Notes: generated from the sequence alone by a model not told the origin. A stretch of DNA of 42,038 nucleotides from Psammoneis japonica (GCA_008632985.1 QPGO01000020.1:744001-786038); one strand, 5' to 3'. Shown: positions 2,935 through 29,389, counted from the first letter of the stretch. Made by a program: numbers and translations.

Positions 2935-5700
2935 TCAAGTGTCTCAGCCATCAAGGGCCTGGTGAGATGGTCTGCCAGTTGGTCCTTGGTGTCAATGCCA
3001 TGCACTGAGATCTCTTTCCTTGTGACATGGTCATGGAAGTGATGCAACTTGACATTTGAGTGCTTGGTGCATGGTCTGCACTTGCGCACATGCGTGCCAT
3101 CTCCAGAGCACTGCTGTTGTCTTCAAACACTTGGCAACGAATCTTGGGCTGTGACATCTTGATGGAGAACTTGTGCCACTTGAGTTCTTTCAACATCTCT
3201 GTCAAGAGTGTGGCTTCTTGCAGAGCATGTGATGAGCCACCAGTGTGTTCAGACTCAGCGCTGCTTGAGGCCACCTCAGTCTGAAGCCAAGATTTCCACA
3301 GTGTGGGACAACCTGTGCAAGTGGCAATGTGACCATCTCATGATCTTGCCACATCACGATCTTGGCCTGCTTCTCGTGGGTCCCAATTTCCACTGAAGTC
3401 TGTGTCCACACAAACTTCCAAATCCTTGTCATTCCAGGTTTTCAGAAAAGTGCCCTTGTCTCTGGTCTTGTGCAAGCACCTGCCAAGCTGCCACGTGGCT
3501 TTGGCATGCTCAACCTTGGGATCTGCTGTGAACCATGCACATTGATGGGTGACATGCGCAGTGTTGCTTTGAGCACATTTCTCCAAGCAGCTCAGCTTTC
3601 CAGCTCTGCTGATCTGTGGTTGAATGAACCATCAAATGGCTCTGAATCAGAGTGCCTCAATGAGATCTTGGAGGATGCCACAGAGGAGTGTCCTTTGCTG
3701 GCAGAGCATTTGGTGAATCCAATTGCAAGTCCTTGAGCATTTGGTCAATTGAGTGTGGTTGGGTCACATGAGCAGCACCCATCATCTTTTCTCACAATGC
3801 TGACACCCAGAAAATTCTGTGTGTCCCCTTCCACAGCAATGTTGAGCTTTGCCTCCTTGAGTTCCTCAACGATCTGTGATTGACTTTGTTCTCATCAGGA
3901 CCAGCAACGAGCAAGTCATTTTCCTGCACAAGAGACAAATTGTTTTTCCCCTGTGGAACACACACTCATCAATTTTTGATTGCTCAAAACCAAGCTTGTT
4001 GATTGGCCATTTGACCAGCAGATGCTTGTTCCACACTCTTCTGACCTGTTTTTGCCCACACACATTTTGGCAGAGCTTCAGAACATGGTCCTTGGCATTG
4101 CCTTTGTTGATCTTGAATCCTGCTGGCATTCCCATGCAAAGCTCTTTGTCAGCCAGCACCTGAGGAAAAGCCAAAACACAGTCCAATGATTTGGAATGCC
4201 ACCCGCTCATTGAATTGAGGGCATGCATCATTTGAACCAAGTTTTGTGCTGCCACTGGTGCATGTGTTTCCTCACATTCCTTCCCCTTTCTCATGCGCAA
4301 GCAGTCAATGTTCAAACAAGCCCTCCATTTCTTGACCTTGTGAGCTGCGATGTCATGCTTGCATTTCATCTGCCATGCCACTGGCAGCACCTTGCTGTCT
4401 CTTTTCACCTTTGATGGTGGAATTGTGGAGAAGTCACCATTTTCCATTTGATCTGTCACCTCCTTTTGCATGGCTTTCAGGAACTGCATGCAACCCGGTT
4501 CCTTCATCACCTGATGCGTGCACATGGTGTCAAGATCTGCTGGTGCTTTGCAGGCATGGAGGGGGCTCTTCTCTTCCCAGAGCACTTGTGAGTCTCAGGG
4601 ATGCATTGCGGTCAAACGCATTGTCTCACCCTCAACGTTGCTCCTTGTTTCTGCACTGCTTTCAGACATCACAGCAGCTTCCATCAGCCTGCTGACCGGT
4701 TGGCTCTTGCACCCTGAACGAGTCACTTTTGGTGCATCAAAGCTGCTTTGTGTCTCATTAGACTCGCGCTTTCTGGGAGCTGCTTCTAGAGATTCATTTG
4801 CAGGCATTGTTCCACCCTCATCTTCTTGAGGTTGCATGTGTGGGCCCTCTTGCCTTGGCGCCGCTTGGCCAGTGACTGCTGCAGTGTTGCCGCACTGCCA
4901 CAGCTCCAGATCTTGTGGGTCAGTCCATTGAACTTGTTTCTGTTGCATCTTGCCCTGCTCAGCTCCCTCTGAACTCACCAGTTTTGGTCTTTGTCACCTC
5001 CCTCTTGGCTGCCAATCCAGCTTTGACATGCCATCACAAATCAAGTTTGTCCTGCTGCAACGCATGGAAGGATGGATCAAATTTGACATGGAGTTGTGCT
5101 GGGCTCACAAGAGCAGCAGCTCAATCCAAGATGAACTCCACATTCTTTCCATGTGTTGGGCTTTGGCCTGAGTGGACAACTCCAACCCTTGATCTTTGCC
5201 TCCATTTGTGGTGTGGCAGGTTAGATTGCAAAGTGTCATTGAGAATGCACGCTGGGCAGCCAAAAGGTTTTCAGTGCTTTGGGTTTGCAGAGACTTGGGT
5301 TTTGGAGAACATCTGCAATGGGGTCAACTTGCCCTTCTTTTGGAAACCAGGCGCCAGCTCTTGAAGTTCTTGGATTCAGTGCTCAGCCGTGCGGTTCTGG
5401 TGGTGAGTGCCTGCCACTGTGAAAGTGAGTCATTGCCTCTGTGTTTGACGTGCAAACACCCAGTTGTTTGTCTTGAAGATGCCATTCTTGTTGGCATGGC
5501 AGGCTTCCACCGTGATGCCACAGCTTTTGGCATGCTGCTCAAAAGCATTTTTTCCCTCCAACATCTCTGCCGCAGATGCCATCTTTTGTGGGCACATGCA
5601 ACCCAACTTGGACCGTCAATTCACATGTGCTGTTGTGCACTTGTGTCTTTTGGTTGTCGGCCATTCAGTCATCTAAACAGCTGACCCTGGCATTGGTGAT
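2935..5700 (-). mobile_element. Degenerate Ty1/Copia (diatom CoDi-like) pol relic: integrase core - reverse transcriptase - RNase H, truncated at both ends
   Basis: Minus-strand motifs in Copia order. Integrase: 'KNAFEQHAKSCGITVEACHA..NGIF', 'KPFGCPAC..HHKWRQRS', 'HVKFDPSF'. RT: 'FLKAMQKEV', 'EETHAPV', 'LDCVLAFPQ', 'NVCGQKQ', 'GFEQSKIDECVF'. RNase H: 'LEVCVDTDFSGNWD', 'SSAESEH', 'VFEDNSSALEMA', 'TKHSNVKLHHF', 'QLADHLTRPL'. Many frameshifts and stops. Confidence 0.93.
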
Positions 5701-6784
5701 GCAAGCTTTTCTTCTTGCTTGGTCCCGGCAACAACAATTGTGCCAAGAAATGACCAAAGACAGCAGGACCAGAACCCAAGTGCAAGCTCAGCTTCTCTCT
5801 AAATGACTGAATGGCAGCAGCAGAAGCGCCTCCACAAGCAGCCAGAAAATGCCAACGCAAGTTGGCAGTGATTTCTTTCTTGCTTGACTGACTCGGCATG
5901 GTCTTTGTCAAGAGAGCTGAGCAGTGGACACAGCTGGGAATGTCATCATTGATGGCACACAGCTTGACAAAACCATGGAACAAATGTTTTGCATGCTTGA
6001 CTTTTGATGAGACCTTGCTGCGGCAGAAAGGGCTGACTCCCCATGTGCACCCTGAAGCTGTTGAGCAGACCTGTTGTCCTTGACGATCGTGTTGACTGGT
6101 GCTCATGCACTGTCATTTTGACACTCAGCAGTTGCAAATTTTTGTGTCAATGGAGCCGTGCAATGACTCTTTGGAGCAAGATCAGTGAGATCATCAATCA
6201 TGCAGATTTTCTCCCTAAATTGGAACAGCACATTTGAGCATGCCATGCAAGCAAACCACTTTTGTTCAGAGCTTTCACAAAGTGACATCTCTCAATGGAT
6301 CTTGATGCAAAAGTGTGCCCCAAGCGTGCGTCTGCATGAGCTCCATGAGGAAAATTGGAGCACATTTTGCATTTTGCAAATGCCCGCACCATGCATGACA
6401 CGACTCCCACTTCTGGGAAGGACAAACACAGTTCTTGAAGAATCACATCTTTGGAACAGCACAAGCATTCTTTGAGGTGAGATCACAACTCTGGTCTCCA
6501 CAACCAAGAACAGCCAAACCCAAAAGACTGCCATTTCAGTCAAATGTCATTCAGAGTTGCATGATGGCTTGGCCTGTCCATGCAGCATCCGAAGAACACT
6601 TGTTGGGAATGACATGCTTCAGTGACAAAACTCAGCGCCGAGGCTCTGGAAGTCATGCCACAGCAATGTCCGAACACCATTGAGAGACTGAAAATGTGTT
6701 GGCTCAACTTTGGTCCACGCGCATGTTTTCTGGATAAAAAAAGGCAACCCTCCATGCAAGTGCCTTGTTGCCGACTTTACATGA

Positions 6785-7216
6785 ATTGTGCTCTCCATCA
6801 ATTGGGCTGGAATGCATTGTTTGATGGCTTGCTTCATCCCGTCATGGCACATGCCTCAACCACAGGTGGAGTGGACTTTGTCTTTGATTTCCTTGAGAAT
6901 CAACGGTGCCAAGGCAGAGCTGCAGCTTCGAACAAAACAAAAGTTGGTGGCACCTCCCCACGGACAATCTTGGCTTTTCCTCAAAGGCGGCACCTGACAA
7001 ATTGCACTCTCCATCAATTGGGCTGGAATGCATTGTTTGATGGCTTGCTTCATCCCGTCATGGCACATGCCTCAACCACAGGGAGAGTGGACTTTGTCTT
7101 TGATTTCTTTGAGAATCAACAGTGCCAAGGCAGAGCTGCAGCTTTGAACAAAACAAAAGTTGGCAGCACCTTCCAATGGACAATCTTGGCTTTTCCTCAA
7201 GAGCGGCACCTGACAA
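6785..7216. repeat. Direct tandem duplication, 2 x 216 bp
   Basis: CTCTCCATCAATTGGGCTGG at 6791 and 7007; both units end CACCTGACAA (7000, 7216); few substitutions. Confidence 0.95.
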
Positions 7217-8466
7217 ATGGTGGGTGCGCATGTGGTCCAAGTGGCCTTTTCCACATGGACGCATGTGACAGTGCTGGAACTTTGTTGTGCTTGACTTGAT
7301 TTGTGGCAGAAGAACAACCAATCCACCCTGTGTCCCATGTTGACAGCAAGGCAGAAATGAGATCATGAACATGACAGAGTGGCACATGACGCTTTGGAGT
7401 TCGGATGGCACCAAGCCATGTGTCCGAGAAATGTTGTTCATGCTGGCAATCAAATTGGCATGTGACATTGGGACTCCCTTCCAATGCAAGCACACACCGT
7501 GGGATTGTTGGGAACGTTGTTTGGTTGTGGGTCACAACCTGAAGCATTGCTGGTGTGGACAGGCCGCTCAAGTTGGGTTTGAAGCAGTGCCAAACACATG
7601 CAGAAAAGGCACAATGTGCAAAGGTCACTTGGCATCAAAGGTCAGTTTTTGTTTCTTGTCCACCATGATGGAGTTGCTTTCCTCTGCACAATCCACTTGG
7701 GTGGGCTCCAACTTGTGCTTGACCACATCACTCTGGGCTCTGGCTCTGACTGGCTCCAATCTGCAGATTGGACAGCAATTCCCAATGTGGCTGCCACCAC
7801 CTCAGCAGCAGGAATGCCCTTTGAGGGAACCCAGAGCAGCTTGGATTTGTTGTCCTCCATGCACAACTTGTGCTTGGACTCGGTGCAGTTTTGGCTCAGT
7901 GGGGGCAAAACACACTGGGTTCATGGCATGGCGAGAAAGGCCAAAACAAATGGCAGGCAGTTTGGTGTGGCAATGGAACAAATGTCCCACTTTTGTGTGC
8001 CACACTTTTTCAACCAGACTTGTTGCAATGGACTCAATCATGTCGTGAAGCTGCTGACAGGAGGAAATTTTGATTGCGGACTGGCTGTTCTTGTGCGGAA
8101 TGCACACCAACATTCAATGAGAACCACAGGGGGAGTTGTTGCAATGTGTTCATGCCGGTGAGACATTGACAAGCAGGGACATCAGGGCCAGCTTCTGCCA
8201 TGGTGTTGTTTCATGCATTTTTAAGTTGGCAAGCACAAACTCAATTAAAGCAGACTGGTGTCAAGTGAAGTCATGAAAGGATCCACAGACCTGTCGTTTT
8301 GGCGATCATTGGAGCATTCAATGACGTTGTTGCCATCATTCACCCATTGCGCGATTGGGTTGAAGATCTTGAACAAGATGCCCAAGTTGAAGATTCTGTT
8401 TTCAACGCACATTTTGTGCAAAAATTCCCTTGGAAAAGGAGTGTCTCTTGTGAGTGGTTGTGCGAA

Positions 8467-8638
8467 TGAGAAAGTCATGTTGCGCTGAAAGCAAGAAGCA
8501 AGACGGGGAGACGGGAGATGGAGATGGGAGACACTGGCAAGAGCAAGGAGCAGCAGCACACAAAGAGCACTTGCAGCACACTGCTGCTGCCTGCTTTTGT
8601 GCTTTCATCTTTCATGCCTGTCACCAAGTGGCCCAACA
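8467..8638. repeat. Possible LTR-like segment (TG...CA ends), related to 9856-10084
   Basis: Starts TGAGAAA, ends CCAACA; shares CAAGACGGGGAGA.GGGAGA, GCAGCAC(AC)AAAGAGCA and CTG.TGCTGC with the second segment. No convincing PBS or TSD found. Confidence 0.35.
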
Positions 8639-8729
8639 TGCTCTCACGGCGGGAAGTTGCAAATGCACCCGGCCGGTCGGTGTGCAGACATTCTTTCTCA
8701 ATGACCAGCCTCTAAATCCGCCATCATCA

Positions 8730-9192
8730 TCCTGAATTCATGAATGGCCCAAATCCACCACCATCTTGAAAAGTTCATGACTGGCCTGAACTCAGTTGGT
8801 GCCAAGACTTCAAATGATCCGCTGAAACTGGCCTGAATCCACCACCATGCCAAAATTCACGACTGGCCCAAATTCACGACATTGGCTTAAATCTGCCACC
8901 ATCCTGAACAACTCACAACCAGCCTCCATGACTGGCATGAACTTGGCCAATGGCCTGAATTCGTGGCTGGCTTCAACCCGCCACCAGCGCCCTTCTGAAC
9001 AATTCACGACTGGCCTGAATTCATGACTGGCCTGACTCCACCACCTGTCACATGGCAACAGGAACCCAGTCTAAGTTCACGACTGTGCATGTGTCATCCT
9101 GCCCACTGCACACAAAAAGGTCACAACCAGAGCCTGAATTCACGACTGCCCCAACTCCACCACCAGAGGGCCCCAAAAAGTTCACGGCTGGT
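8730..9192. repeat. Array of a degenerate ~17-bp motif (GGCCTGAATTCACGACT) interspersed with CCACCACC
   Basis: AATTCACGACTGGCC / AATTCATGACTGGCC / AGTTCACGACTG variants recur about 10 times with irregular spacing. Confidence 0.8.
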
Positions 9193-9210
9193 TTGAGTCA
9201 TGTGCTGAGT

Positions 9211-9660
9211 GTTGCCAAATTTCTCAATCATTGTCATTTTTGTGCATGTCAGCAGGATGCGTTGGCATGTTGTTTGTGTCGCTCATCGATTGACACTGCA
9301 CTGCCGACAAAGAAATTGAAAAGGAACTTTTTTCCGTGGTGCGTTGAGTGTTGTTGAGCTTCTCAGAAAAAGCTTTCGATCAATGCAGCAAAGCATGCTT
9401 TGCTCTGACTCACACTTCTAACTCTGCTTTTGCCTGTTTTCAATCGCACTTCCAATCCACTCGTGTTGGCTCATGTGCCATGGCAGGCATCGAGGTCCTG
9501 GCTCTCACTTTTCGGGGAGCATTTCCGCAAAATTTCTCGATTTGCTTCTCAACCTGCCTCTGGCCTCTGGCCAAGTGCGTTTCTTCGACACTTGGAATGA
9601 CTGCATGACAAGTCTCACTCCAAAAAACAAACAGAACTCATGGTTGTTTCGGACTCAAGC
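9211..9660. repeat. Diverged, TA-erased paralogue of 12157-12200 plus 13200-13560 (old local duplication with a large indel)
   Basis: Shared blocks: GTTGC.AAATTTCTCAATCA.TGTCATTTTTGTGCA; CGTTGAGTGTTGTTGA; TGCTTTGCTCTGAC; TCGAGGTCC; CGCAAAATTT; TCGACACTTGGAATGACTGCAT.ACAAGTC. Confidence 0.85.
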
Positions 9661-9855
9661 TGGACTGTTGTGGAAATCCTGCAACAAACACGGCTGCTGG
9701 CTGTCCAGACCGTGGATGCTTTTTCCGAGGTGCCGTTCGTTTTGACATTCCGGATTTTCTGCACCATTTGAAGAATTTCACCTTGGCAAATCCAAAGTGT
9801 GGAGAAGTTAAATTCCGTCGTAATTGGCAAAATCTACAGTCCAAAGCTGAATTTA

Positions 9856-10084
9856 TGAGAAATGTGGGCCCACAAGTCTTGGTGGTTGCTGTGATTTCAA
9901 GACGGGGAGATGGGAGACTCAAACACAAGCAAGCCGCAGCACAAAGAGCATCGCACTGATGCTGCAAGATGGCACAGCTTGGTGACCAACAGTGCCAGTG
10001 ATGATGTCAAATGCAATGCATTGATGCTCGGTGCTTGCTGTGGATCCCTGCTGGCGACAGAGATTCTTCTTGCCGGCCACAACA
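9856..10084. repeat. Possible solo-LTR-like segment related to 8467-8638
   Basis: TGAGAAA...CACAACA ends and the shared purine-rich GACGGGGAGATGGGAGAC core; flanks do not form a TSD. Confidence 0.3.
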
Positions 10085-10284
10085 TCACTTTGGTGTGCTG
10101 AGAGGCCACAGCGGCGCTCTTCAGTGAGGGAGGTTCGGTTGTTCACATTCCCACACGCTCGGGTGAGGAGATTGTCAGTCAGACGGTTCAGCGAGTCGGC
10201 CAATGCCTCATTGGAGCTGGTCGAGTCTTTGCTCAATCCCATCCTGCTTCAAGTCTTTCTGCTTCTCCTGGTGCTTTCACAGTT

Positions 10285-10800
10285 GTGCTGTCCGACACAG
10301 TCAATGCCTTTGTCCTGCCCAACAATCATGTGTTTGTCATGACGGGCCTTTTCCAACACGTTCGAGACGAAGATGAGTTGGCCGCTTTGTTGGGACATGA
10401 ATTGGCTCATGGAATTGCATGCCATGCTGGTGAAAAAATGAGCGGTTCCATTGTTGTCAATGTCACTGCTCGGTTGTTGTTCTCAGTGGATCCTTCAGGG
10501 GCACTGTCGTCCACACTTCTCTCGGCAGCTCAGTTGCTGCAGGAGCTTTCTAATTCTAGACAAGCTGAAACCGAGGCTGATCAGATTGGTGTGTTCTTGA
10601 CTGCTCAGGCTTGCTGTGATCCACGTGCTGCCAAACGCGTTTTTGCGTGAGTTGTTTTCTTTGCGCACACTGGCATGCCATCTTGTTTGTCATTCCTCTG
10701 CTTAACTTCTGTTCTTCCATTGTCGGCATGTCCAGAGCAATGAAAGAGGGAGCAAAGGGAGCACAGCCTCCAGAATTCATTTCGACTCACCCTGGATGCC
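10285..10800 (+). pseudogene. Peptidase family M48 (Oma1/HtpX-like) gene fragment with one intron (10647-10735), TA-erased
   Basis: 'VNAFVLPNNHVFVMTGL', zinc motif 'LLGHELAH', 'SRQAETEADQIG', 'ACCDPRAA' (family ACYDP); a GTGAGT...CTTAAC...CCAG intron restores the frame to 'AMKEGAKGAQPPEFISTHPG'. No intact N- or C-terminus evident. Confidence 0.85.
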
Positions 10801-13800
10801 AGGGGCTTTGGGGGTCTTTGAGAGTGATGCCGGTCACCGTTGTCGTCAGGTTCGTGAAGACATGCGAGCAGCTCATTTGATTGTGGCGCAGAATCAAGGC
10901 ACCACGACTTAACACAGGGGAGAGGAGCTTGAATGCAATGGCACCAGGAGTTGAGAGTGGTGCTCTAGAGAGTTCGCAGGCCAAAAGAATGAAAGGGACA
11001 TCGCCAATGACAACGCTGGCGCAGTGGGAGCACATCGCAGGGGACGCAACAGTGCAGGGGCGGCGCTTGCAAGTGGGCTTGTGGTGTGCTGTGCAAGTGA
11101 TGGCTCTGCCAGTGTGATGAAGGAATCGAAACTCGAAACCAGCGATGTCATGCCCAATGACGAAGTGCTGCATCCTTTGTCATTTGCCATCTTTTGCTGC
11201 TCTTCTGTTCAAGTCGCTGCTCTTCTGTTCAAGTTGTTGAACATTGTGGCAAGCAGGCAATCAGAGCCGAAACAGCCCAGCATGCATCGGCGACGGGGCA
11301 CACCGTGACGAACAACCCGACGTGGACTCTGGGCAAGCAAGTGCACGATGACATCGCAAGCACTGCGACCGTCATCGCAGTCCATTTGACATGCATGCGG
11401 AATGAATTGCGTGCAAATGAAGATTGCCACAGTGTGCTTTTAGAGTCTTTCTGCTTCCATTGCAAAGGTTCAAAGCGTGTTTCAAACAGTTGAAACACGC
11501 CAATGTCAAAAGTTGACATGGAAATCGGTTGCGCAGGGTGACGTTGCCTCAAGAGCTCCATCAAAAGATGGCGCTCAAGCTTTTGCGTGTCTTCAGAGAG
11601 AAAAAATGTCACTCTAAAAAAAGCAAAAGGGGGGGCGCACTGCAGAGACAACAAGAAAACTTGCCAGTCAACCGCGTTCTAAATCAACACTCCCCACGAG
11701 TGAAGACTCACCGCATCATGCCACTGATGCGACAGAACCCCAAACCTGTGTTCTGTCAACAGCATGATCTGCTCGGCGAGCTCTTGCTGCTTCACAGACG
11801 AACGCTGCTGTCTGTTTCAACAGCCGTGACCTGACGGGTCAAGCGAACAGGCAACTTCCTGTGCTTGAAGACACGAGAGTGACATGGACTCAAGGCCGGA
11901 GAGATGCACTCGATTTGCCCCGACCTCTGGACTTAACTGGCAACACCTGCGCCACCTGGAGACAACACGTCAACAAGCATGATGAGTTGTGGAACACCAA
12001 ACAAGAGCTGGCTCTCTGTTGTCCGCAAGAAGGGCGAGCCATCCTGGGCGATCGCGGCAATCGTTGCTTGGCGAACAACAACACATCGTGCGAGACAAGG
12101 AGTTGTGATTGAAAAGCGTGAAAGAATTTCCGAGAGATTTTGAGTGAGACATGACCGTTGCTAAATTTCTCAATCAGTGTCATTTTTGTGCACATCTGTA
12201 GAATTACTACCATGATTTCGTATGTAGAACATTCGTGAAACTTGGTCTCGCGCACGTGTGCGCGGTCATTAGACTGTGTAGGCGTGTGTGCGTGTGTGAG
12301 GTGTAAGTAGAATATACGTAGAATTACTACTGATGAGTTGACAGGCGGTGGATTTTCCGCCGGTACACAATCTACGCGGTCTACATGGAACATAAATTTA
12401 TGTCGGTCTCTGAGGATTTTACATATCATTAACATTTCTTTGGTCTTTTAAATATACATACCCAAATTCAAAAAAGTGAGGAACACCCCGAAACACATTT
12501 TTGAATCTGTATAAAAAATTTTTTTATTTAACGGTCCGAACAGGGTCGCCCCGAAGCGCTTCTCAAAATATCCTCATATTGTATATAGTAAAACATCTAC
12601 TATCACCAAAACAGAGTCACTATCGGATAAATAGATCCCGTGTTCTTCGCGCGCAAACAACACGATAACGCACAACAACACCATGGCGAGAAACGCGAAC
12701 GCCGTCCCCTCATCTACAAGTTGGGAATACGAGATACTATTGAAGTGGTTGGACAATATGTATGCGCTGTATTCATGGGTCAAGTTGGGTTTCTTCTCGT
12801 TGCTTGTTGTTGCGTCATTTTACTACGTTTTGACCCACGCCGTGTTCTTTGCTTTGTTGCTTCTGCTCGCGCGCCACCAACAGCACTTCCTGCAGGGTAT
12901 GGCTAGTTGCTCATCACATCGAACCCAAACGTGCGCGACCAACTAGCCCTACCCCGGCTAACTCATACTTTCAAAATTATTACCAAATCCTACGTACACT
13001 TTACGGTAACCATAGAAAACGCAAACATTTGTCGCCAAGGTGACTGTTCGTTGTCGAGGTCCGAGCTAAGAATAATTAGCAGGTGGCGCAACACATCTTC
13101 TTGCCACATACAATAACACGGCATTCAGCACGACGATGACAAAGCTCCGGATTGAGATCATCACAGATCACAGTAGTCGACTTCCCAACGAAGAAAGTGA
13201 AAAAGAAACCTTTTCCGTAGTACTGTACGTTGAGTGTTGTTGATTGTTGAGCTTAATTCACAGAAGAAGCATTTGATTGCAGCAAAGTATGCGAATGCTT
13301 TGCTCTGACGCATGCTTCTACTTTTACTTTTACTTGGTTTTTATCATACCTCCAATCCATCCACTCGTATCAGTTTGTGTACCATCCCGGATATCGAGGT
13401 CCCGGTATTCTCTTTTCGGGGATAATTTTCGCAAAATTTATCGATTTGCTTTCTCAACCTACCTCTGGCCACGTTTGAACGTGCATTTCGTCGACACTTG
13501 GAATGACTGCATAACAAGTCCTATTCCAAAACATCAAAAGGAACTCGCGGGTTTTTCGGATCCAAGTCATCTGGTTGATTTTACTCATGACACTCCGTTG
13601 CTAACGTGGGCGTCGTAGACGTTGCTCTCGATTCACAGCAGATTCTTTCAACGATTGAAGGACGCTGGATGCAGTGATATCGAGACAAATAGCCATAAGA
13701 GTGGGTTGTTGATGTTTGTGTGAGTCTCGGTGGTGAAGCAGGTGATTTTGTTGCAGTTGAAAATTACGCAAAGACAGCACAAGCACTGCAAAGTTCGTCA

Positions 13801-14944
13801 TCTGCTGCAAGAGCACTCAAGGACGGCGCTCAAGATGGAGCGAGCGGACAAGATTGTTGCGCTGATTGGGGCACAGTGACAAAAGCACCTCGACATATTA
13901 TGGAAGCCACTGTTGCGGCGCTGGATGAATTGCTTGTTTCTAATTGAGCCGATTGTTGGCATCTTATGCGGGTGGAGCTTGCTGCGCCTGAGCCAGGCAC
14001 GACAGCCCGCACTGCTCGAACGTTCGGCGGCACTGTTGCAAAGACGATCTTCTCCTGCGGTTGACTGTTGCGTCTTTTCAAATTATCGCGATACTGTGAT
14101 CAGATGTGGCCAACCAGAAAGTGTTATGGGTGTGGCCAACCGAAAAGTTGGCCACAAATGGAGTCCTGACGGGAAGGCCGTCTTTCTTTCCAAGCGGTGC
14201 TAGTGTCACCGAAATGCGATTCGTCCCATCTGAAAAGTATGCGCAAAATAATTACGAGTGAAATGATAATGTCGGCTACTCTACAAGCGCGAAATCCTAG
14301 AGTATTTTAACTATAGCCGGAGCAGTTTTGTGGCTTCACTAAGTAAGTCAATGACTTTCCGTGTCTCTATGCGCTTAACTTGGCCATGCCAAATAGTTGT
14401 TACTCGTATTTCGGTCCCTCGACTCAAATGCTTCTTGTTGCCGATTGGTCGTCATTCTTAACCGATTAGTTGGCGCGAGTCGAACTTTTTGCGTGCTTTG
14501 AGCTAACAAGCTTCGTTATCAGTGCGAGTGGGGGCTTGGTTGTTTTGTTTGTCTGGACGAAGCGCACTTGATACGAAATCTGCAACGGGAGTAGCAACTG
14601 CTGCTGCACTTGAAGGTTCAAGTTTTGTCGGGCCGCCGCTCCATTTCGTTGCCTTTAGCCTTGTTATTGTCTTAACCATTCCAAGAGCCCGTTGCTTCTC
14701 TAATCGCTAGTAGTTGTCGGTGAGGTGAATACGTAGCATTATTTGTGCAGTAGTCGAAGGTAATGATGCCGCCAATCGGAACTCTTTTATACCTGAAGCA
14801 GTACCGCAGTAGCATTTTGGATTGGCTAATGAATCAATTCAGCAGAGATACAAAAGCTACGATTATGCTATGAAAGCTTTAAAGGGGTGGCGACGCCTCG
14901 ATGTTTGAGAATACTCTTTAGCAGCAAGCATTCTTACTTGTCTT

Positions 14945-15982
14945 TCAGGAAGCAAGTCCATCCAAAAGTGTCATTTCGTCAGGTGATAGCTGAAAGTCAA
15001 ACACTTGTAGGTTTTCGATAAAGTGATCCTTCTTCTTGCTTTGCGTGGTGAAGGAGGCGCCGTTCTGGACAATCCAACGCAACGCGACTTGAGCTCCACT
15101 TTTACCATAGGCTTTCCCAATGTCTGCGCATTTTGCTTTCATTTGCGAAGTAAATCTCCCTCCTAGACTCCCTCCCAAAGGAGCCCAAGCTTGTACCAGT
15201 ACACCTCGTTTCTTGTTCTCCTGTACAATGCTTTGAGCCCCACCAGGATGGTATGCTACCGAAAGCGGCAATTGATTCACGACAGGCTTGACTTGGAGAG
15301 CCGGGTCCTCCAGAATACAATCGATTTGTTTGGGTGAAAAGTTGGATATAGAAAGAGTCCTTGTAAGTTTCTGATTGTGCATATCCTGAAATGCTTTCCA
15401 CTGTCCACGAATGGAATCGCAGTCCGGCCCGGGATAATCCAACATGATTTGATCAAGATAGTCAATACCACCCACAGCAAACGCCTCGAGGTTCTGTTTC
15501 CATCCCTTCGTTGTAGCCTTGTAAGCCGCATCAAATCCTTGCACACGATTGGAAACCACGGATCCAGAAATAAATATTTCAGATCGGTCAATTCCAGAAT
15601 CTCGAACTGCCTTGGCAAAGCCACGTTGGTTGCCAGCCAGAACAGATGCAAAAAAGTTTCGATATCCCACCTCCAGAGCTGTTCGAGTCAGCTTGTATGC
15701 CTTGTCGTCGTCATAGATCTGCAGTCCAAAACTCGCCAACGGAAACTCGTAGCCGCCCTCCAGCGTAGTAGTTGTTGTAGAGGGAGATGCCGCTATTGCT
15801 CTGTTGTCATGATTTGGTAAAAGAACACCGCTTCCAACAGCAACAGCAGCAGAGCTCGTACGAACGAATGCATCTCTTCTGCTGATACTCTTCCCACCAT
15901 AAGCAGATGGTGAAACATTAAGTGATGCAACTAGGGCGGGAACACATGAAAGAAGAGGTATAAACACTGAACGCAACCTCAT
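14945..15982 (-). CDS. Aldo/keto reductase-fold protein (~345 aa) with signal peptide and twin-arginine presequence
   Basis: Intact ORF from ATG 15982 (MRLRSVFIPLL...). AKR motifs 'ALEVGYR', 'RSEIFI', 'DYLDQIMLDYP', 'ISNFS', 'PVVNQ', 'VQAWAPLG', 'AQVALRW', 'ENLQVFDFQLS'. Confidence 0.9.
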   Translation of the reverse strand: MRLRSVFIPLLSCVPALVASLNVSPSAYGGKSISRRDAFVRTSSAAVAVGSGVLLPNHDNRAIAASPSTTTTTLEGGYEFPLASFGLQIYDDDKAYKLTRTALEVGYRNFFASVLAGNQRGFAKAVRDSGIDRSEIFISGSVVSNRVQGFDAAYKATTKGWKQNLEAFAVGGIDYLDQIMLDYPGPDCDSIRGQWKAFQDMHNQKLTRTLSISNFSPKQIDCILEDPALQVKPVVNQLPLSVAYHPGGAQSIVQENKKRGVLVQAWAPLGGSLGGRFTSQMKAKCADIGKAYGKSGAQVALRWIVQNGASFTTQSKKKDHFIENLQVFDFQLSPDEMTLLDGLAS

Positions 15983-16272
15983 TGTCTTGTTTGGTGGTTT
16001 GATGATGGCGCCGCAGATTGAGGATGTGATGGATGATGCGATGTGATCGTGATCGTCATGCCGTGTGCGATGGACGATGCGGATGTGATGTGATGTTGTG
16101 TGCGCGATGATGCGGTGGGCGGGCGGTGGGCTGTTCCGCGTGCACGAGGTCGATTTTTTTGAAAACAATGGGAGCTCGATTCGAAAACCATACTAGCAAG
16201 GCGACAGCGCGGCCGCCGGCCGTCGATCGATGATGATCTTCACGCACAAAAAATACAAAAAATTGAAGAAAA
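15983..16272. promoter_or_regulatory. Probable bidirectional promoter region
   Basis: 290 bp between divergent start codons; contains GATGT/GATG repeats and a GC-rich near-palindrome GCGGCCGCCGGCCG. Confidence 0.55.
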
Positions 16273-18357
16273 ATGAAGAGAGCACCATGCTCATCTTTAC
16301 GGCATTATCAACGCATGTTGATGACAGGTTGCTGTTGCTTGTGCCTGGCTAATCAAGCGGAGGCCTTTATCTGCCCCATCTTTTGGGAGCCTCGTCAAAA
16401 TATTGCAGTTTCTAGTTTCAAACAGAGCAGAACATTGTCATGTCGACATTGGCAAAGTCAAACATACAATGTCCAGAAGAAAACAACCGCATCAATCGAA
16501 CCATACACACGAGAGACGTTGGACGACGGCCATTCAGTATCTTCAAGACCAATGCGAATAGAGAACCGAGAAAGCAAGAGAAGAAAAATATACTTCGTAA
16601 TGGCTATGATTCTTTCGTGGTTCATTCTGGCAAAGTCTCCCGCGTCTGCTGCTTCGTCTGCTGCTTCTCCGTCACCAATAACACAAGCTCATCCACTTGA
16701 ATTGAAAAAGCTCGGAATCGCTGCTTGTATGGCTTTATCGGTTGGTGGTGTAGGAATGAGAATTGCAGGACTGAAGCGGCTGTCGGTTCAGATTATGATT
16801 GCATGCGGTCGGTGTGCGCTTCAACTCTATCTGGTGGGGTCGTTGATACTCACGAGACTGTTTGGAACAACCAATCCTGCCATTGTCATGTCATGGATTA
16901 TTGGAGTGGGAATAATTGCAGCCTATGAATCGTATATGCGCGTTGAGTATTCCTATCCCGCGTTGAGCAAGCACTTGGTAGTTTCTGTACTATCCGGTGG
17001 GCTATCGGTACTGGGACTTGCATTGCTGTGGAATGTATTGGGAAATCTCGATCCCTGGTTTCAACCAAGAACCGTTATCCCGATATCTGGAATGATATTT
17101 GGTAATACCTTATCAGCTGCTAGTTTAGCTGCGGATTCGCTTACAAAGGAATTCGCCCTTCGAAGAGATCAGATCGAACTGCGCTTGGCTCGTGGTGCGT
17201 CGTCGGATGAGGCGGCGTTACCACATGTGCGGACAGCTCTGACGTCCGCTCTAACACCCGCCATCAACTCTCTTTCCATTACGGGTATTGTACACATGCC
17301 TGGCATGATGTCGGGGCAAATATTGGCGGGACAGTCGCCGCATCAAGCGGCGGCATACCAAGTCATGATTTTATTTTTCATTACCACCAGTGCCTGCGCA
17401 ATGGTTCTTGTCCTTTGTCAATTGGTTAAGCGCGAAATGTTTGCTAGCGAAACACTCACTCTGACTCGACTTTATTCAATAAACACGGGCGGCAAACAAG
17501 CACAAGATCAAGGCACAATAAGCCGCGACAAATCACCATCAGCTTACATCTGGCGACTTGTAGCATCGATTGTCGGTATTCGATTATCAGCAGATCCTAA
17601 ACACACTCGACTGAACTCACCCAAGGCTTCAACGGGGAGCTTGTCAGTACCTTCATTCGAGAATTCTCCCACCATAAAGGCGATGGAGATGAGCACGCCG
17701 GATAAAAAAGACCGCAGAGATATGCCGGTTTTGGAGGTTAAAGAACTCAAAGTCAAGGTCGGGCATCGCGACCATCGAACTGTTTCATTCAATCTTTTTC
17801 ATGGCGACCGTATCGGAGTTATGGGCCCAAGTGGATCAGGGAAGACGCAGCTATTGAGAACTCTTGCTGCGTTTGAGGTATTCAGTGGTACAAATGACAA
17901 GCAAATCTCTTTGAACGGTGCTGTTTCGCCTAGCTATAGTCTTGCCCAATGGCGATCCATGGTATCTTGGTTACCACAGGATAAACCAACGCTCGGTGGA
18001 ACTCCAAGAATGTTTTTCAACGAAGTACTTGGCTACAAAAGCCGACGAATGAAGAATGAGAAAGATAACACCCCTTGTCCCGACCAGTATTGCATCCAGT
18101 GGAGCTTACATCCAAGCGCCTTGGATCAATCTTGGTCTACCTTATCGGGAGGGGAAGCACAGCGTGCCTCACTTGCAATTGCCCTATCGTTGAAACCAAC
18201 AGTTCTGCTCTTGGATGAATCCATGGGAGCACTCGACAAGAAAACTTCATCATTGGTGGAAACGACCCTCGTTGATTCTGGTATTCCTGTCATTCTCGTG
18301 ACACACTCCGACGAACAATTGGAACGATTTTGCACCCATACTATCCGTATCGCCTAG
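16273..18357 (+). CDS. Fusion of a UPF0014 (FetB/YbbM, plant ALS3/STAR2-like) permease and an ABC ATPase (FetA/YbbL, STAR1-like); putative plastid targeting
   Basis: 694-aa uninterrupted ORF. Permease motifs 'PRTVIPISGMIFGN', 'IELRLARGAS', 'GIVHMPGMMSGQILAGQSP.QAA.YQVMI'. Walker A GPSGSGKT, signature LSGGE, Walker B LLLDE, H-loop VTH. N-terminal 'AEA-F' resembles the diatom ASAFAP cleavage motif. The true start may be a slightly later Met. Confidence 0.9.
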   Translation: MKRAPCSSLRHYQRMLMTGCCCLCLANQAEAFICPIFWEPRQNIAVSSFKQSRTLSCRHWQSQTYNVQKKTTASIEPYTRETLDDGHSVSSRPMRIENRESKRRKIYFVMAMILSWFILAKSPASAASSAASPSPITQAHPLELKKLGIAACMALSVGGVGMRIAGLKRLSVQIMIACGRCALQLYLVGSLILTRLFGTTNPAIVMSWIIGVGIIAAYESYMRVEYSYPALSKHLVVSVLSGGLSVLGLALLWNVLGNLDPWFQPRTVIPISGMIFGNTLSAASLAADSLTKEFALRRDQIELRLARGASSDEAALPHVRTALTSALTPAINSLSITGIVHMPGMMSGQILAGQSPHQAAAYQVMILFFITTSACAMVLVLCQLVKREMFASETLTLTRLYSINTGGKQAQDQGTISRDKSPSAYIWRLVASIVGIRLSADPKHTRLNSPKASTGSLSVPSFENSPTIKAMEMSTPDKKDRRDMPVLEVKELKVKVGHRDHRTVSFNLFHGDRIGVMGPSGSGKTQLLRTLAAFEVFSGTNDKQISLNGAVSPSYSLAQWRSMVSWLPQDKPTLGGTPRMFFNEVLGYKSRRMKNEKDNTPCPDQYCIQWSLHPSALDQSWSTLSGGEAQRASLAIALSLKPTVLLLDESMGALDKKTSSLVETTLVDSGIPVILVTHSDEQLERFCTHTIRIA

Positions 18358-19039
18358 AGGTTTTTTCTTTGTCGTTTAACTGCTTTGAGCAGCAACCGTT
18401 GGGTGCCTCGAGATATCATTGGATACACATCCTGTTCCAGATACAAAACTGGATTCCTAGTCCAAGAAGACGGTCATACCATCCTATATTCAAACAAACA
18501 ACGAGACGCTAACTGCATTTCATGAGTGAGTAACGTCTTGGATAGAGAGAGTGAGTATGGAAGAAGGAGAAAAACTGCACGCATCCCGATAATCTTTTGC
18601 TTCTTTGCTACTCGCACCATCACTCTTTTTAAAAGATATCGCCTGTGTCGGTTCAAAATTTGTATGTTTCGTCAAGGGTTGAAGACAACGGGCACTACAT
18701 TACTCTCAAATGACAAACGGAGCCCCGACATCATCTATTGGTCGTCCTTGAAACCGCCATCCTTGTGCAAGCAATGCTTAAGTCCGATAGTGACATCGAC
18801 TGACAGTAACATACGCAGTGACGGAAAATTTCTTTAGTGTCAAACGCTTAGTGCGTAGCTGTCCCATCTAGAGATGAAGCGTTCGCTCTGCCCCAATGTC
18901 ACTTTCGCTGAAGAAAACCATGCATTGCACGCACTGTCAGCCAAGCAGCTCCTCTTCATTTGTCAGTGCTTTGGTCGTGCATAATGTCGTCATTCATGAC
19001 TCGATTGTAATTGCAGATCGACTGGGCCCCTCATACGCA

Positions 19040-22000
19040 GTCCCATCAGCAGTGTTGTTGCCCCTTGAGCATGTGGAATGCCAACAACAAAAAGCAAAAA
19101 GAGAAAGCAAAAAGTGGGAACAAGTCATTGTTGTTGACTTTTAATCATGCAGAAACAGAATGTCCAAGCAGAGCAGTGCATGCCGCTGCTCTCTGCAAGC
19201 ACAGTTTCTTCTTCATGATTGTTTTGCATTGGTGTTTCACAGCCTCCTCTCTTTTGGCTTGTTTTTTGTGTGCTTTCACCGCCACCACCCTTTTCTGTGC
19301 AGTGATGTGTGCAAGGCAAAAGCAAATGCCTCCAGGCTCCAGGGGTCTTCAAGGATCAAGAGTGGATTTGTTGCATTTGCCAGGCATGCCATTTTGATCC
19401 TTTCCTTTTTTCCTTTTTTCCCTTTCCAACCTCAAGTCTCTCATTTTTGAAACAGCACATTGGCTGCCAAGCATCCTTTTCTGCCAGGGGGGGGGGGGGG
19501 GGGGGCGCTCCAAAAGTCGTGCACTGATGAGTGCAAGAAATGTGAAACATGCCATTTCTTTGGCAGAAAGAGAGCAACTGACCATCATGCCCTGGCTGCA
19601 GCAGGAGGCTGTGATGTGACAGAGAGAGCCTTCACTCTTCAATGTCTGGGAAAGGGGTGGGCCAGAAACTGGCGTGCAGTGGCTTGGGTTGTTGGTGTGC
19701 AGGGGGCAACCAGAGTCAAGGCCAGCCACATGCTGACAGGGGTGGCTGAGCTCACTTTGAAGCAAGCACCAAAGAAAGACTGGAGGGTTTTTGCTCATGC
19801 CCCCTTTTTGATGATGCAAGACCAATCATTGGTTTGTCATGGGGTGCTTTGCTGAGATTGTGGGTGAGAAGCCAATTGTTTGTTTTGGCTTTTTTGTGGC
19901 ATGAAGTCATGCAGCATGCTCAGTGAGTGTGAGCTTTGGTGCTGTGGCACATGGATTTGCCAGCACCTTCTTTGGCAAAAAGCATCATTTTGGGCTGGTG
20001 CAGCTGTGCACCTTGAGGGCTTTTTTTTTCAAATCAAAAACATTTGTGCCAGTGTGCAGTGGAGCAGCTTGCCATCCATCCACCAAGAGGAGCAGCGGCC
20101 AGACTCCTCTCTTGCAACAACAACCCCAAGCTCAGTTGAGCTTCATTGCAAAGCTGCCTTGTCTGTTGCTTTTGCATGAGGGTGGCAGTGCTTTGTTGTC
20201 AGCTGCCATCTCCAGCAGGCAGCAGGTTTGGCAAGTGACAGTGCTGACCAACATCATCGTTGACAGGGTGTGAAGAAGTCCAGTTGTGTGACATTTGATG
20301 CCAGAGATTTTTTACACGCACCACATTGGTTGGCACATTTCAAACAATGCTGGCACATCAGGACTGGAGTGCATCACTTGGACACAATGATGATCCAGGG
20401 CAGGCACTCATTTGAAATGCCACCATGTTTGCTGCACTTTGTGTTGGAGTTGAGACATGCAGTGGATGGCCCATCACATGACTCAATGATGTGGGCTGCT
20501 TTCACCCTCAACAGTGCTCTCTGTGCAGCAGACCTTGCGAGTCTTTGATGTGGTCACAAAAGGTTGGAAAAGGTGCTTGTTTGTTGCAGCTTGCTTTTGC
20601 TTGACCAAAGCTGTCATTTCCACCAATGTCCTCCCCAGGCTCAATCATGAATGAGGGGTGCTCACCAATCTGTCAGCTGGCGGTGCTTTCAACTTTGCTC
20701 TGCTGGCCAACACAAATGATTTGGTTGTCAATTGAGCTCCCCAATTTAAACACTGAGATGTTTTGTCACAAACTGGTGTTGACAAATGCAAAATTGTGCG
20801 CAGCAACTCTTGCAAAACTGCAGCAAATGATGCTGTGCAGATCAGCTGCACACTCAGCTGGTGCTTCACACAACAGCTCCCACTGAAAAAAAAACTTGTG
20901 AGAGACACCATGTGGGCATTGTTCCAGTGGGCTTCATTGGCAGAGTCATCCTTGAAGCAAAGCCAAATCATCACCTTGCCACTCAAGCCCCTTTTCCTGG
21001 TCCAAAAGATGCCCATGTCTTGCAGGTCTCATTGTCCACCAAGGTGTCAGCACAATGCTTGGTGCCAACATCCACCTTGTGCACGGCATGGCCGCTTTTG
21101 ACACATGGCATGCTTGAAAAAGTTCATGTCATCACTGGCTGCTTCTGCATCCGATGTGTTCCAAAGGCTCATGGTGCATGCTGTGGAGTCAAAACTTGGG
21201 TGTTTCTTGTTGTGAGCCATGCAGAACACGTGCGGGTTCTCTTGTGTGCTTGACATGGCTGTGTGTGGCTTGAAAGGATGTGCCCCAATGCAAGCAGATC
21301 CATCCAGGTGCGCTTGAAAGGATTTGACCCCACTCGACAACCAAAGCACCTTTCATCTGTCAGCATGTGGGAAATGGATCATCCAGCAACTGGCTGTGCC
21401 AAGCAACATGGAGCGGCTCAACTTGATGTGAGTTGGGAGAATCTTCTGGGCTGTGCGCTGACAGACCTGACTGAGCTCACTTTGAAACAAAAGCAATGGA
21501 AAAGGTGTGTGCAATTTTGACATGCAAACACCAACAAGTGCGGCAACCATGGAGGGCTCTTCAATGCACTTGAAACAAGATCAAATTGTTGGCACACCCC
21601 GGGATGTCACCTGGATTGTGAGTGATGGATCAGCTGCCTGTTTTTGATTTTTTTGGTGTGAAGCCATGCAAACAGGTGAGCCAAGTGGACATGAATTTTG
21701 GCGTTGCAGTTCATGGAGACTTGTCGACACCTTTGAGAAACCCTTGCATTTTTGACAAAATCAGTCTCTTGTCTCAAGGCCTTTTTTTTGGATGTTTGAT
21801 GTGCACAGGAGCACAGCTGATCAACAACCAAGAGCAGGAGAGGAGCTGAAAACATGTGGCATGTGCAACTCTTGCAATGAGCCCCCCAGTTCACTGTTTT
21901 GAAAGAAAGCAAGCAATTTCCCTTGACGCAATTTCACCACATGGCTGTGTCTGTCACTGCTGCTGTGCAGGACCACACCCTGTTGCAAACTCCTGTCCAG

Positions 22001-23330
22001 ACAAAGAAAGAGAGTGTGCCAATTCATTCATTCATTCATTCAAGAGAGAGAGAGAGAGAGAGAGAAAGAAAGAAAGAAAGAGAGAGAGACAGTGTGGTGA
22101 CTTGACATCAAATTAAATCAGTCAACTCAAATCGCCTGTCCCTTGCCCCTCTGATTGTTCCAACACAAAAGCTCACCACACATCAACAACAGCAGCCAGC
22201 CACTGATGAAGCCACTGCAAAAATCTCATTTTCTTGACTTCGGCCAATGTTGTTGTGCCTGCTGTTTGCTGAAACAGCTGGACATGTTGTGCCCAATCAA
22301 GCAGCTTCACCTCAGCTGCCAACGCCATTTGTTTGTCACATTTGATGGAAATTTTGATCATTTGTTCAAGAGAGAGAGAGAGAGAGAGAGCTCTTGGACA
22401 AAGTTTGTGTCACAGTCGACAGAAAATTGGTTGTGCTGATTTTGTCAGAGGAGAGCCCTGTCATCTCACACATCTGCTGTCTTGGTGGCGCCAAAAATGC
22501 TGTGACGGCAGGACCCATGGGGACTGAATTGACAAAGGCCACCAGGAGCTTTGGATGCACAAGTGTGACTTGGGAAACCATGTCTCAAAACTTGGGCTGT
22601 TTCTGCATGAAAAGCACCAATTTGAGCAAGAGCGCAGCAATGTCGTCGATGCGCTCCAGCTCCAGGTGGGACCTCGCACTGCTGAACTGTGACATGGTTG
22701 TTTTTTCATCATCCGTCACATGTTTCGCAAGTGCATTTCTGCATGTTCCATCACAAAAATTTGTTCCACACTGCCTGTTTTGTGAAGCCAAAGGCTTTCT
22801 GTTGTCTGCATTTGTGACAACAAAAATGCGCTGGGCATGTTCTTTGGTGTCTGAAAAACACACCCGGGCATGCTGCAAAGAATGTGCTTCAAGTGTGGAG
22901 GAGGAGATGCATTCGCAAAATTGCCTCTTTTTCTGTTGGCGATCATTCACATGTTCATTGCTCAACAATTTTGCAGCTGAGCTCACACGTGGAATTCCAC
23001 GGGCCCAATGTCACACGGAGTCCCACCTGGGGCTGGAACGCATCGTTGTGGCAACAATCTCACCATTCCTCGTAAGACTCAAAAAATGCCAAGCCAAACT
23101 TGCACAAAAAAATCCCGCATGTGCATCGCACTCAAAGTTGACTGTGGGGCTCGATGCAAGGATTTCAACCCTGCTCAAGTTCGTTCATCCAAGTGAACAT
23201 GTCAGGAGTGTCTCTGTCCTCAACACCCTCCACAGAGAGACCAAGGTTGACATTCTTGCCCTCGCACACCACATGCGAACAATGCCTGATCATGTGACGT
23301 TTGATGCCTGAGCATTCTTGCATGTGCCTC
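19040..23330. other. TpA-depleted relic/repeat island 2 (element identity not recognised)
   Basis: Only a handful of TA in 4.3 kb (TTAA at about 19141, 20746, 22113; TTAC at about 20312); Tyr-free spurious ORFs; G19 run at 19487-19505. Confidence 0.88.
22022..22390. repeat. Microsatellites: (TTCA)n-(GA)n-(GAAA)n at 22022-22090 and (GA)n at 22368-22390
   Basis: Directly visible simple repeats; both GA runs follow TTCAA. Confidence 0.9.
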
Positions 23331-28901: not shown

Positions 28902-29389
28902 ATGATTTGAACAAGAGAATCCAAGTAGCGAATGCTGTTTGAAAAAAAATCTCGTTTCAGTCTTTCAATGAAATCTAACGAGTCAGAGTTTTTTCTTGAG
29001 CTCAACTCGTACTGACCGTGGTAGATTCGATGCGCGTACGTTGGATTTTGTTGCCCACGGGCATAATTACGAAAGGAGGAAACTGTCACGTTCCTTGTCA
29101 CCTTTCCACAAGATGAATTCGATCTTCGGGGTTTCTATAATACGTGATTTTTAAAGGAATAGCTAAGTGTAATGAAAAAAATCATGAATAATACCTCCAG
29201 TACTTCGAATATGACTTGCGTTCAACGGACGGTCCTCTATCACACGACTCGCAATGGAAATTTAAAAATTCAAATAATGTACACATTGATAAAAGAGGAT
29301 TGACAGTACCCTGAAATTGGGAACGTTAGTTCTGAATACAAACATAAATTTATTTTCCACGACACAAACCACATTTTGCCATCTGAAAA

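Follow-up and report, generated by a model that had tools for sequence, protein, structure and literature searches.

We analysed a 42,038-nucleotide (nt) stretch of DNA from Psammoneis japonica (GCA_008632985.1, QPGO01000020.1:744001-786038), hereafter the window, with particular attention to positions 10090-12150 and the relic of an M48 (OMA1-type) peptidase gene within them. In its sequence the window looks like pennate diatom nuclear DNA. It alternates between gene islands and three blocks that are nearly free of the dinucleotide TpA (TA): block A (1-12161), block B (19100-23333) and block C (40430 to the end). In these blocks TG and CA together reach 1.5-1.9 times their expected frequency. 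Our analysis indicates that 10090-12150 is probably the right part of a 12-kb silent block carrying a dead M48 duplicate, and that such DNA is rewritten by transitions proceeding at two speeds, from which working gene copies are spared. The two transition processes, each specific to its dinucleotide context, are common to the same tracts.

Dinucleotide frequencies describe the pattern. Observed/expected ratios were derived from base composition. The original prediction described 1-8200 as poor in both TA and CpG (CG), and 10090-12150 as rich in CG with almost no TA. Our counts agree. In 1-8200, TA occurs 14 times where 537 are expected (0.03), CG 96 times for 488 (0.20) and TG+CA 1870 times for 1024 (1.83). 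The corresponding values in 10090-12150 are 9/120 (0.08), 99/138 (0.72) and 394/257 (1.53). Two block edges were said to behave in the same way, and they do: TA is 1/46 and CG 23/40 (0.57) in 22640-23330, and TA is 0/32 and CG 25/33 (0.76) in 40430-40950. In the gene island at 12163-19000, TA is 315/493 (0.64) and CG 380/366 (1.04). Measured against this baseline, the TA deficit has Poisson P values of 1e-22 in 10090-12150, 5e-12 in 22640-23330 and 1e-9 in 40430-40950. CG exceeds the level of the core in the same three stretches (P = 7e-26, 1e-5 and 4e-8, respectively). It is also below the island baseline in two of them (P = 5e-5 and 1e-3, and 0.06 for 40430-40950), and in 10090-12150 CG itself is reduced by about 30%.

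The further claim that TA loss is independent of CG decay fares less well. We divided the window into 168 bins of 250 nt and called them TA-erased at a TA ratio below 0.2 (76 bins) or TA-normal at a ratio of at least 0.4 (65 bins). The two ratios co-vary across all bins (Spearman 0.81), yet a CG ratio of at least 0.4 persists in 24 of the 76 TA-erased bins. In ten of these it is still 0.7 or higher, and three of the ten (16001, 27251 and 28251) fall in intact open reading frames (ORFs), whose composition accounts for the low TA. A CG ratio below 0.4 does not occur in any of the 65 TA-normal bins. Since CG decay is absent from TA-normal bins and CG is retained in part of the TA-erased ones, CG decay is nested within TA erasure. 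The two losses share tracts and differ in speed, and the term 'uncoupled' is an overstatement.

Poisson segmentation places the steps in both ratios. CG rises from 0.13 (1-4200) to 0.27 (4201-8300) and 0.62 (8301-12000), and TA is 0.09 in 8201-12200. At about 8200-8300 the two step together, TA from 0.03 to 0.09 and CG from 0.27 to 0.62, which is further evidence against independence in space. Block A is thereby divided into an old erased core with TA and CG both nearly gone (1-8200) and a right-hand unit with TA erased and CG partly decayed (8201-12161), which contains the M48 relic. The left edge of block B shows a step in both ratios at 19100. On its right edge, CG steps at 22600 and TA at 23300, about 700 nt apart, and on the left edge of block C, TA steps at 40500 and CG at 41000, about 500 nt apart. 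The TA boundaries are sharp, with runs of TA beginning at 12162 and 23334 and ending at 40429. At 12162, the right boundary of erasure in block A, the nine TA of 10090-12150 compare with 27 in 12001-12500, nearly all past the boundary. The share of TG in TG+CA is 0.42-0.55 in 19 of the 20 1-kb bins of the erased blocks, and in these 19 there is no strand bias that would point to a one-strand process.

A tandem duplication inside the window provides a before-and-after pair. Copy 1 (28128-29389, plus strand) consists of the 3' end of a Pro-rich ORF (24342-28901) and its 3' flank, and is unconverted. Copy 2 (29390-30687, plus strand) is an orphan duplicate of this host-type gene end. The duplication is exact and head-to-tail, and the copies are 96.1% identical over 1262 aligned positions. 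From copy 1 to copy 2, the 49 differences comprise 24 of TA to TG or CA, 10 of CG to TG or CA, and 15 others. In the reverse direction there are three possible TA-type differences and one CG-type. The losses define an isolated 1.1-kb converted tract within copy 2 (29449-30536). Here 24 of 29 TA are lost and 10 of 56 CG (83% vs 18%, Fisher p = 1e-8). Outside the tract copy 2 has lost 0 of 10 TA and 0 of 5 CG. All 10 CG losses lie at 29467-30315, within the TA tract; they amount to 10 of the 61 CG in the whole orphan copy, and the partner copy has lost one.

The tract has well-defined limits. Conversion affects 0/1 TA at 29422, 17/17 at 29449-30366, 2/7 at 30434-30468, 5/5 at 30487-30536 and 0/9 at 30561-30649. 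The tract thus begins 60 nt past the duplication junction and ends 150 nt short of the end of the unit. It is 6 kb from the nearest erased block, which ends at 23333, and its flanks are TA-normal. The TA changes are strand-symmetric, with 14 of TA to TG and 10 of TA to CA.

We used the 3' end of a paralogous gene (30894-33674) as outgroup to polarise the changes. This region (33279-33900, plus strand) is 81% identical to 28512-29139, which the three-way alignment spans. Nine TA-type, seven CG-type and eight other changes were assigned to the orphan copy. Copy 1 received no TA-type, one CG-type and seven other changes, and three differences between the copies are ambiguous. In the 490-nt non-coding 3' flank of copy 1 there are at most two conversions, vs 13 in the matching part of copy 2. 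On this one young duplicate, TA loss is therefore strand-symmetric and 4-5 times more complete than CG loss. The proposal that TA loss is faster than decay of the 5-methylcytosine type is upheld here, and also by a short M48 segment described below (2/2 TA vs 2/5 CG). Its other half, independence of the two, is contradicted by the spatial nesting.

The same pair contains a second group of changes. A:T to G:C at ApT makes up four of the 15 'other' differences, at 28695, 28737, 28760 and 29026 in copy-1 coordinates (ATC to ACC, ATT to ACT twice, and GAT to GGT). Among the outgroup-polarised changes, A:T to G:C outside TA was found five times on the orphan copy and not on its partner. The mutator may also act, less strongly, at ApT.

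The M48 relic lies on the plus strand. Its main coding block (10174-10646) matches PF01435 with 81.4 bits (cut-off 20.3, E = 9.6e-23). Of the 155 relatives found among 5062 candidates, the best with a name are OMA1-type proteins from Seminavis, Mayamaea, Nitzschia and Epithemia. The relic is 76% identical to the closest relative, P0121, and 62-66% identical to diatom OMA1-named proteins. As the original prediction had noted, it carries an HELAH motif and a clean intron. The zinc-binding motif HELAH (10396-10410; HEXAH in relatives) is intact, and the downstream Glu region is kept. The 89-nt GT..AG intron (10647-10735) is located as in relatives, in the frame RVFA/AMKEG. A second coding block (10736-10793, frame 3, identified by tblastn and hmmsearch) runs to ..PPEFISTHP. 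At 10792/10793, other contigs contain 34 nt (11 codons and one base) that are gone from the relic, and the frame is shifted. The C-terminal block (10793-10912), from WMPGAL to RCRQVREDM, follows out of frame, matches relatives in frame 2 and ends with TAA. It overlaps the second block by one base in a different frame.

Several features distinguish the relic from OMA1-type relatives. Its N-terminal third was not found by a profile of 60 relatives (profile positions 1-104) in six frames of 8000-11300, and residues 1-102 of P0121 have no tblastn match upstream of the relic. The frameshift removes the SH(D/E)xRI segment. The relic therefore lacks a complete reading frame with the N-terminal part and the THPSxxxRI segment. 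Changes also occur at columns invariant in 60 of 60 relatives (R to C at 10420 and P to S at 10549). Judged by its sequence, the relic is a dead copy, a pseudogene. It retains its intron, which indicates that it was copied as DNA and is not a retrocopy.

The relic also bears the marks of TA and CG loss. TGT at 10615-10617 encodes Cys at a position that is Tyr in 53 of 60 relatives (ACYDP to ACCDP, as originally predicted), a change that needs a single TA to TG step from TAT. Tyr is absent from all 215 amino acids, against an expectation of 6.8. In 10174-10912, the CG ratio is 0.61 and the TA ratio 0.09. At 110 columns conserved in at least 80% of 60 relatives, the relic keeps 88 and has changed 22. 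Seven of the 22 are accounted for by one TA- or CG-type step: Y to C at 10615, L to S, T to A, R to C twice (once at 10420), R to H, and A to V.

Other M48 versions were found among read contigs from two runs, X1 and X2, of one sample, which we aligned to 9000-13000; the kind of X2 was guessed ('DNA?'). In X1, contigs identical to the window copy have a depth of 32-42, and the five listed contigs show no difference from the window over 1561 bases. Further X1 contigs are 90-95% alike across 9381-12105. At 10792/10793, other contigs have 32 extra letters and a 2-letter overlap, which together make up the 34 nt missing from the relic. Translated by hand, this segment reads SHDRRIASFDD in frame, at the place where relatives have SH(D/E)xRIxxFDx. 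One M48 version bears two TA and five CG in the 34-nt segment (depth 51.9 in X1 and 122.3 in X2). A different version, confined to X1 (depth 50.7), is identical in these letters except that 2/2 TA and 2/5 CG are changed to TG or CA, and nothing else is changed in the 32-letter stretch that this comparison covers.

The TA-bearing version appears to be the intact one that the original prediction told us to look for. A 662-nt X2 contig of it (depth 122.3) joins 10646 to 10736 and skips the 89 nt between them (GT..AG); no such contig is found in X1. The intact version is spliced at the intron 10647-10735, whether X2 is complementary DNA (cDNA) or the contig is a processed copy. It keeps TA at third positions and in upstream DNA. 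The relic is thus one of several versions and not the sole copy, and the view of it as a captured gene is supported by a version in which TA and CG are present. The original prediction named a lone expressed copy with no TA-containing parent or orthologue as a refuting outcome, and on this check the evidence comes out in its favour. At the sites shown, X2 contains the intact version alone; contigs cannot show absence, and the kind of this run is a guess. P0121 was considered as the parent and rejected, because the reads contradict it at 10219 and 10270, so it is a relative from elsewhere. The parent was absent from both protein database searches.

Differences between the M48 versions follow the same classes. 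We classified 40 shown differences of 204, of which 25 are in X2 contigs. These 25 include nine sites with TA in the read and TG or CA in the window, five with CG in the read, four CA/TG pairs and seven others. None of the 40 has TA in the window and lacks it in the other copy. Seven of the 40 are CA/TG pairs, which points to an ancestral TA or CG resolved differently in separate M48 copies. The X2 tally, which includes contigs of other repeats, lists 55 TA-type transition places, 36 CG-type and 28 transversions. The relic differs from the intact version at 28/325, 31/308 and 13/146 positions in three contigs. On these sequence distances, the relic is not very young.

Repeated DNA surrounds the relic. 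A 2287-nt X1 contig that matches the window exactly stops at 9339, and paralogous contigs start by 9381. Upstream of the relic, the TA-poor stretch 9304-9659 (plus strand) is 73% identical over 385 columns to 13185-13566, an old relative that was not converted. TA to TG or CA differences number 14 from the 13185 copy to the 9304 copy and none in reverse, and the copies contain 21 and 1 TA, respectively. No similarity between 9200-12160 and 13000-14950 was detected beyond 9304-9659. A TA-poor patch at 13620-14070 (13 TA in 13501-14000, ratio 0.39) adjoins this relative in an otherwise normal island. Downstream of the relic, 11412-12105 is repeat DNA with TA erased and CG at 0.7-1.0; its summed X1 contig depth is 1300-9900 vs 32-42 for unique DNA. 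From 11412 the sequence is TA-free to 12161. Two contigs lose likeness past 12105, so two elements probably meet at the TA boundary at 12162. Several contigs skip 12237-12965.

Transposon sequence is scarce in the erased blocks. Among 88 ORFs of at least 75 amino acids scanned in the three erased cores, one has a transposon domain. This is a copia-type reverse transcriptase relic on the minus strand at 3869-4594 (PF07727 RVT_2, E = 5.7e-16), with no Tyr, 15 Cys and 10 His in 243 amino acids. Labelling blocks B and C as transposon cores is an assumption; a transposon is shown for the block A relic alone. At the edges of blocks B and C and in the M48 flanks, 42 ORFs of at least 70 amino acids gave no Pfam family at E <= 0.01. 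An ORF of 317 amino acids at 22358-23308 has no relative in Pfam or the protein atlas (best atlas score 0.82), and we take it as a false ORF from loss of TAA and TAG. With these two stop codons lost and TGA the sole remaining one, erased DNA is rich in long false ORFs.

We propose the following account of block A and its kind. The 12-kb block would contain an M48 duplicate, with its intron kept, no recognisable N-terminal third and 34 nt missing, followed by repeat DNA. One process would change TpA to TpG or CpA, equally on both strands, and would run near completion where active. The other would change CpG to TpG or CpA more slowly and in a graded manner, with about 80-87% lost in old cores and about 20-40% in margins and young duplicates. 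A tract would accordingly be TA-free and CG-rich at first and poor in both later. Gene copies would be struck as non-working duplicates situated in such tracts, and working copies retain TA and CG, including at silent sites and outside coding sequence. The chemistry we would expect at TpA is a change of A to G in the DNA, for example by adenine deamination, and the CG loss is probably deamination of 5-methylcytosine. The tracts seem to be chosen by their silent state and not by sequence homology alone, because working copies escape though equally repeated, and because the hypermutated viral region described in the sections of a Bigelowiella natans preprint used here is single-copy and silent (Mettrop et al., 10.64898/2026.01.13.699255).

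A more specific form of this proposal is tentative. An expression-gated DNA mutator of the diatom, probably an adenine deaminase that targets TpA in either strand, may rewrite non-expressed stretches of at least about 1 kb, whether transposon or surplus host-gene copy. Its edges would be sharp to about 100 nt, it would outpace CpG decay by several-fold to orders of magnitude, and it would spare the transcribed copy.

Other explanations have to account for the same data. The original prediction held that TA mutation can spread from transposon cores, in which case a mutator aimed at the cores would run 0.5-4 kb outward into non-transposon DNA including a host gene, while CpG methylation stays on the cores. 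TA loss does overshoot the CG-decayed core at three of four block edges, by about 3.9 kb (right edge of A), 700 nt (right edge of B) and 500 nt (left edge of C). We nonetheless regard this explanation as unlikely. The M48 piece is duplicated DNA, one of several versions and flanked by repeats on both sides, and not a unique flank. CG in the margins is itself lowered in two of three cases, TA stops or resumes abruptly at 12162, 19100 and 23334, and the one transposon shown in the cores is the block A relic. Moreover, the tract at 29449-30536 has both types of loss at 6 kb from any erased block. Spreading from cores is thus unnecessary for either gene case; at the edges of blocks B and C it could have taken place. 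It is similarly improbable that duplicates are detected by homology, as in fungal repeat-induced point mutation (RIP), with working copies appearing intact through selection. Both host-gene targets are duplicated, the M48 gene in several versions and the tandem unit. The converted tract lies wholly inside the duplicated unit, and the CA/TG pairs among the M48 differences fit separate conversion of each copy. Against this, copy 1 retains TA throughout its non-coding flank, where selection is a weak excuse, and intact M48 does so at third positions and upstream. The relative at 13185-13566 is old and unconverted, the very high-depth DNA right of 12162 is TA-normal, and the hypermutated region of B. 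natans, in the sections of the preprint used here, is single-copy (10.64898/2026.01.13.699255).

Two further explanations have very little probability. TA and CG could be present and base-modified in silent chromatin, and misread in sequencing or polishing. The pattern is indeed confined to probably modified, silent DNA, and there is no record of which sequencing chemistry produced the assembly and the runs. This is very unlikely given the five X1 contigs that agree with the window at every base, even if X1 may be the source data. In addition, converted and intact copies differ by insertions or deletions (34 nt and 36 nt) and transversions, and one consensus has TG at some sites and CA at others, as expected of real separate loci. 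Still less credible is that the TA-poor copies arose when transcripts with ADAR-like A-to-I edits were reverse-transcribed. The preference of ADAR-type enzymes for U before the edited A, mentioned in the preprint's discussion (10.64898/2026.01.13.699255), would suit the TA context. Editing of retrocopies is excluded by the intron and flanks of the M48 relic, which are retained and TA-free, by the tandem case, which is a head-to-tail duplication of DNA, and by strand symmetry, with TG and CA both on one strand (14:10) and no bias in 19 of 20 bins.

Several observations weigh against our preferred reading, in which silent copies are rewritten and working copies spared. TA thins gradually over 39200-40499 before block C (21/70, 0.30) with CG normal (0.94); no other boundary in the window is graded, no gene could be recognised in this one, and it would be consistent with a degree of outward spread. 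For the edges of blocks B and C there is no before-and-after pair and no recognisable gene or transposon. DNA at 12162-13000 has a summed X1 contig depth of 3400-10400 vs 32-42 for unique DNA and normal TA (0.7-0.9); it may be an unconverted high-copy element, and repeats as such are therefore not always targeted. The orphan tandem unit is not filled by the tract, as its final 150 nt keep 9/9 TA and the patch at 30434-30468 keeps 5/7. Changes outside TA and CG make up 15 of the 49 differences in the tandem pair and 15 of the 22 at conserved M48 sites; in addition, the copies are just old or relaxed. The intact M48 version is known from short contigs of one sample, about 1 kb without its locus, and it could come from a second strain or near relative in that sample. 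If X2 is DNA, its contig lacking the intron represents a processed copy instead of a transcript.

Elsewhere, one unrelated alga is the only reported case of TA-directed mutation. Among the matches listed in the full-text literature, there was no report of a TA-erasing mutation in diatoms. In mutation-accumulation lines of B. natans, TpA-only A:T to G:C hypermutation affects silent integrated giant-virus and virophage DNA (Mettrop et al., 10.64898/2026.01.13.699255). Of 231 de novo changes in two regions, 230 are A:T to G:C; every one of these lies at TpA, the rate is about 6e-7 per site per generation, and TpA-depleted clusters in that genome are enriched in transposon domains (10.64898/2026.01.13.699255). 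Adenine deamination was proposed as the cause (10.64898/2026.01.13.699255). We compared our data with the sections of this preprint used here. Both cases have TpA changed to TpG or CpA in bounded tracts, silent there and probably so here, with TG+CA enriched, against the usual GC-to-AT bias. Homology is not required there, in the single-copy region, and working copies are spared here. In our window, A:T to G:C at TpA accounts for 24 of 49 tandem differences, for 9/9 polarised TA-type changes, all on the orphan, and for 14 vs 0 differences in the 9304/13185 pair. The affected regions are bounded at 12162, 19100, 23334 and 40429 and by the tract at 29449-30536.

There are also clear differences. 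The host here is a diatom-like stramenopile, of another supergroup, and TA falls to 0.02-0.09 vs a Rho of 0.45 in B. natans. Targets here are transposon relics and dead host-gene duplicates; there they are viral inserts. Here the tracts also lose CpG; there 230 of 231 changes are A:T to G:C, and the near absence of other change does not hold in our data. The 10 CG-type and 15 other changes among 49 are long-term differences, and those in B. natans are de novo mutations. The process in the window is a variant of the TpA mutation known from this one preprint. Its new features are the diatom-like host, near-complete erasure, dead host-gene copies as targets and shared CpG loss.

Two other systems are instructive. 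Fungal RIP, in Neurospora and others, kills duplicated DNA by dense context-specific transitions in sharply bounded tracts. It changes C to T at CpA, which raises TpA, and mutates all copies of a duplication. It is pre-meiotic, needs a RID-type methyltransferase and leaks into neighbouring genes. Our case resembles it in that duplicated DNA, host genes included, is killed by context-specific transitions in bounded tracts. Unlike in RIP, TpA is destroyed and not made (TG+CA at 1.5-1.9), one tandem copy is mutated and not both (no polarised TA-type changes on copy 1 vs nine on copy 2), and the intact M48 version keeps TA. CpG decay through 5-methylcytosine would account for the other process. 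CG to TG or CA is in excess in affected DNA, with 10 of 61 in the orphan copy vs one in its partner and ratios of 0.13-0.27 in the cores, and is graded with apparent age. Such decay cannot remove TA, and here it is the slower process and never occurs without TA loss.

The window has further features. The gene islands consist of long ORFs, mostly without introns. An aldo-keto reductase ORF is located at 14945-16192. At 16267-18357, one ORF of 696 amino acids is a fusion of a UPF0014 membrane domain (E = 4e-59) and an ABC ATPase domain (E = 8e-19). The Pro-rich paralogues at 24342-28901 and 30894-33674 contain long Pro/Thr-rich tandem arrays with periods of 21, 48, 93 and 108 nt, a G+C content of 0.62 and a GC skew of about -0.43; one of the two has a DUF7467 match (E = 2.7e-10). 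Within the old erased core, 6784-7215 is a tandem pair of 216 nt that is 94% identical. The first kilobase (1-1000) is the sole erased 1-kb bin with strand bias (TG 84 vs CA 156, share 0.35, p = 4e-6). A and C are in excess in it, and it has overlapping internal repeats of about 70% identity.

TpA hypermutation has so far been measured in one alga, in one preprint whose sections used here name no known enzyme or targeting rule (10.64898/2026.01.13.699255). The data presented here make the targeting rule testable, as host-gene duplicates are struck as hard as transposons and working copies are spared also at silent sites. The isolated 1.1-kb tract indicates that no transposon core is needed, and the loss of 83% of TA vs 18% of CG is a direct ratio on one young duplicate. 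The state of TA can serve as a fast on/off flag of silencing, and the CG ratio as a slow clock. Annotators of such genomes should expect Tyr-free, Cys- and His-rich pseudogenes, few stop codons and long false ORFs. If our tentative proposal of an expression-gated mutator is true, the diatom would possess a system that kills pseudogenes and transposons and selects them by silence, not by homology. It would be the second eukaryotic lineage with TpA hypermutation, after Bigelowiella.

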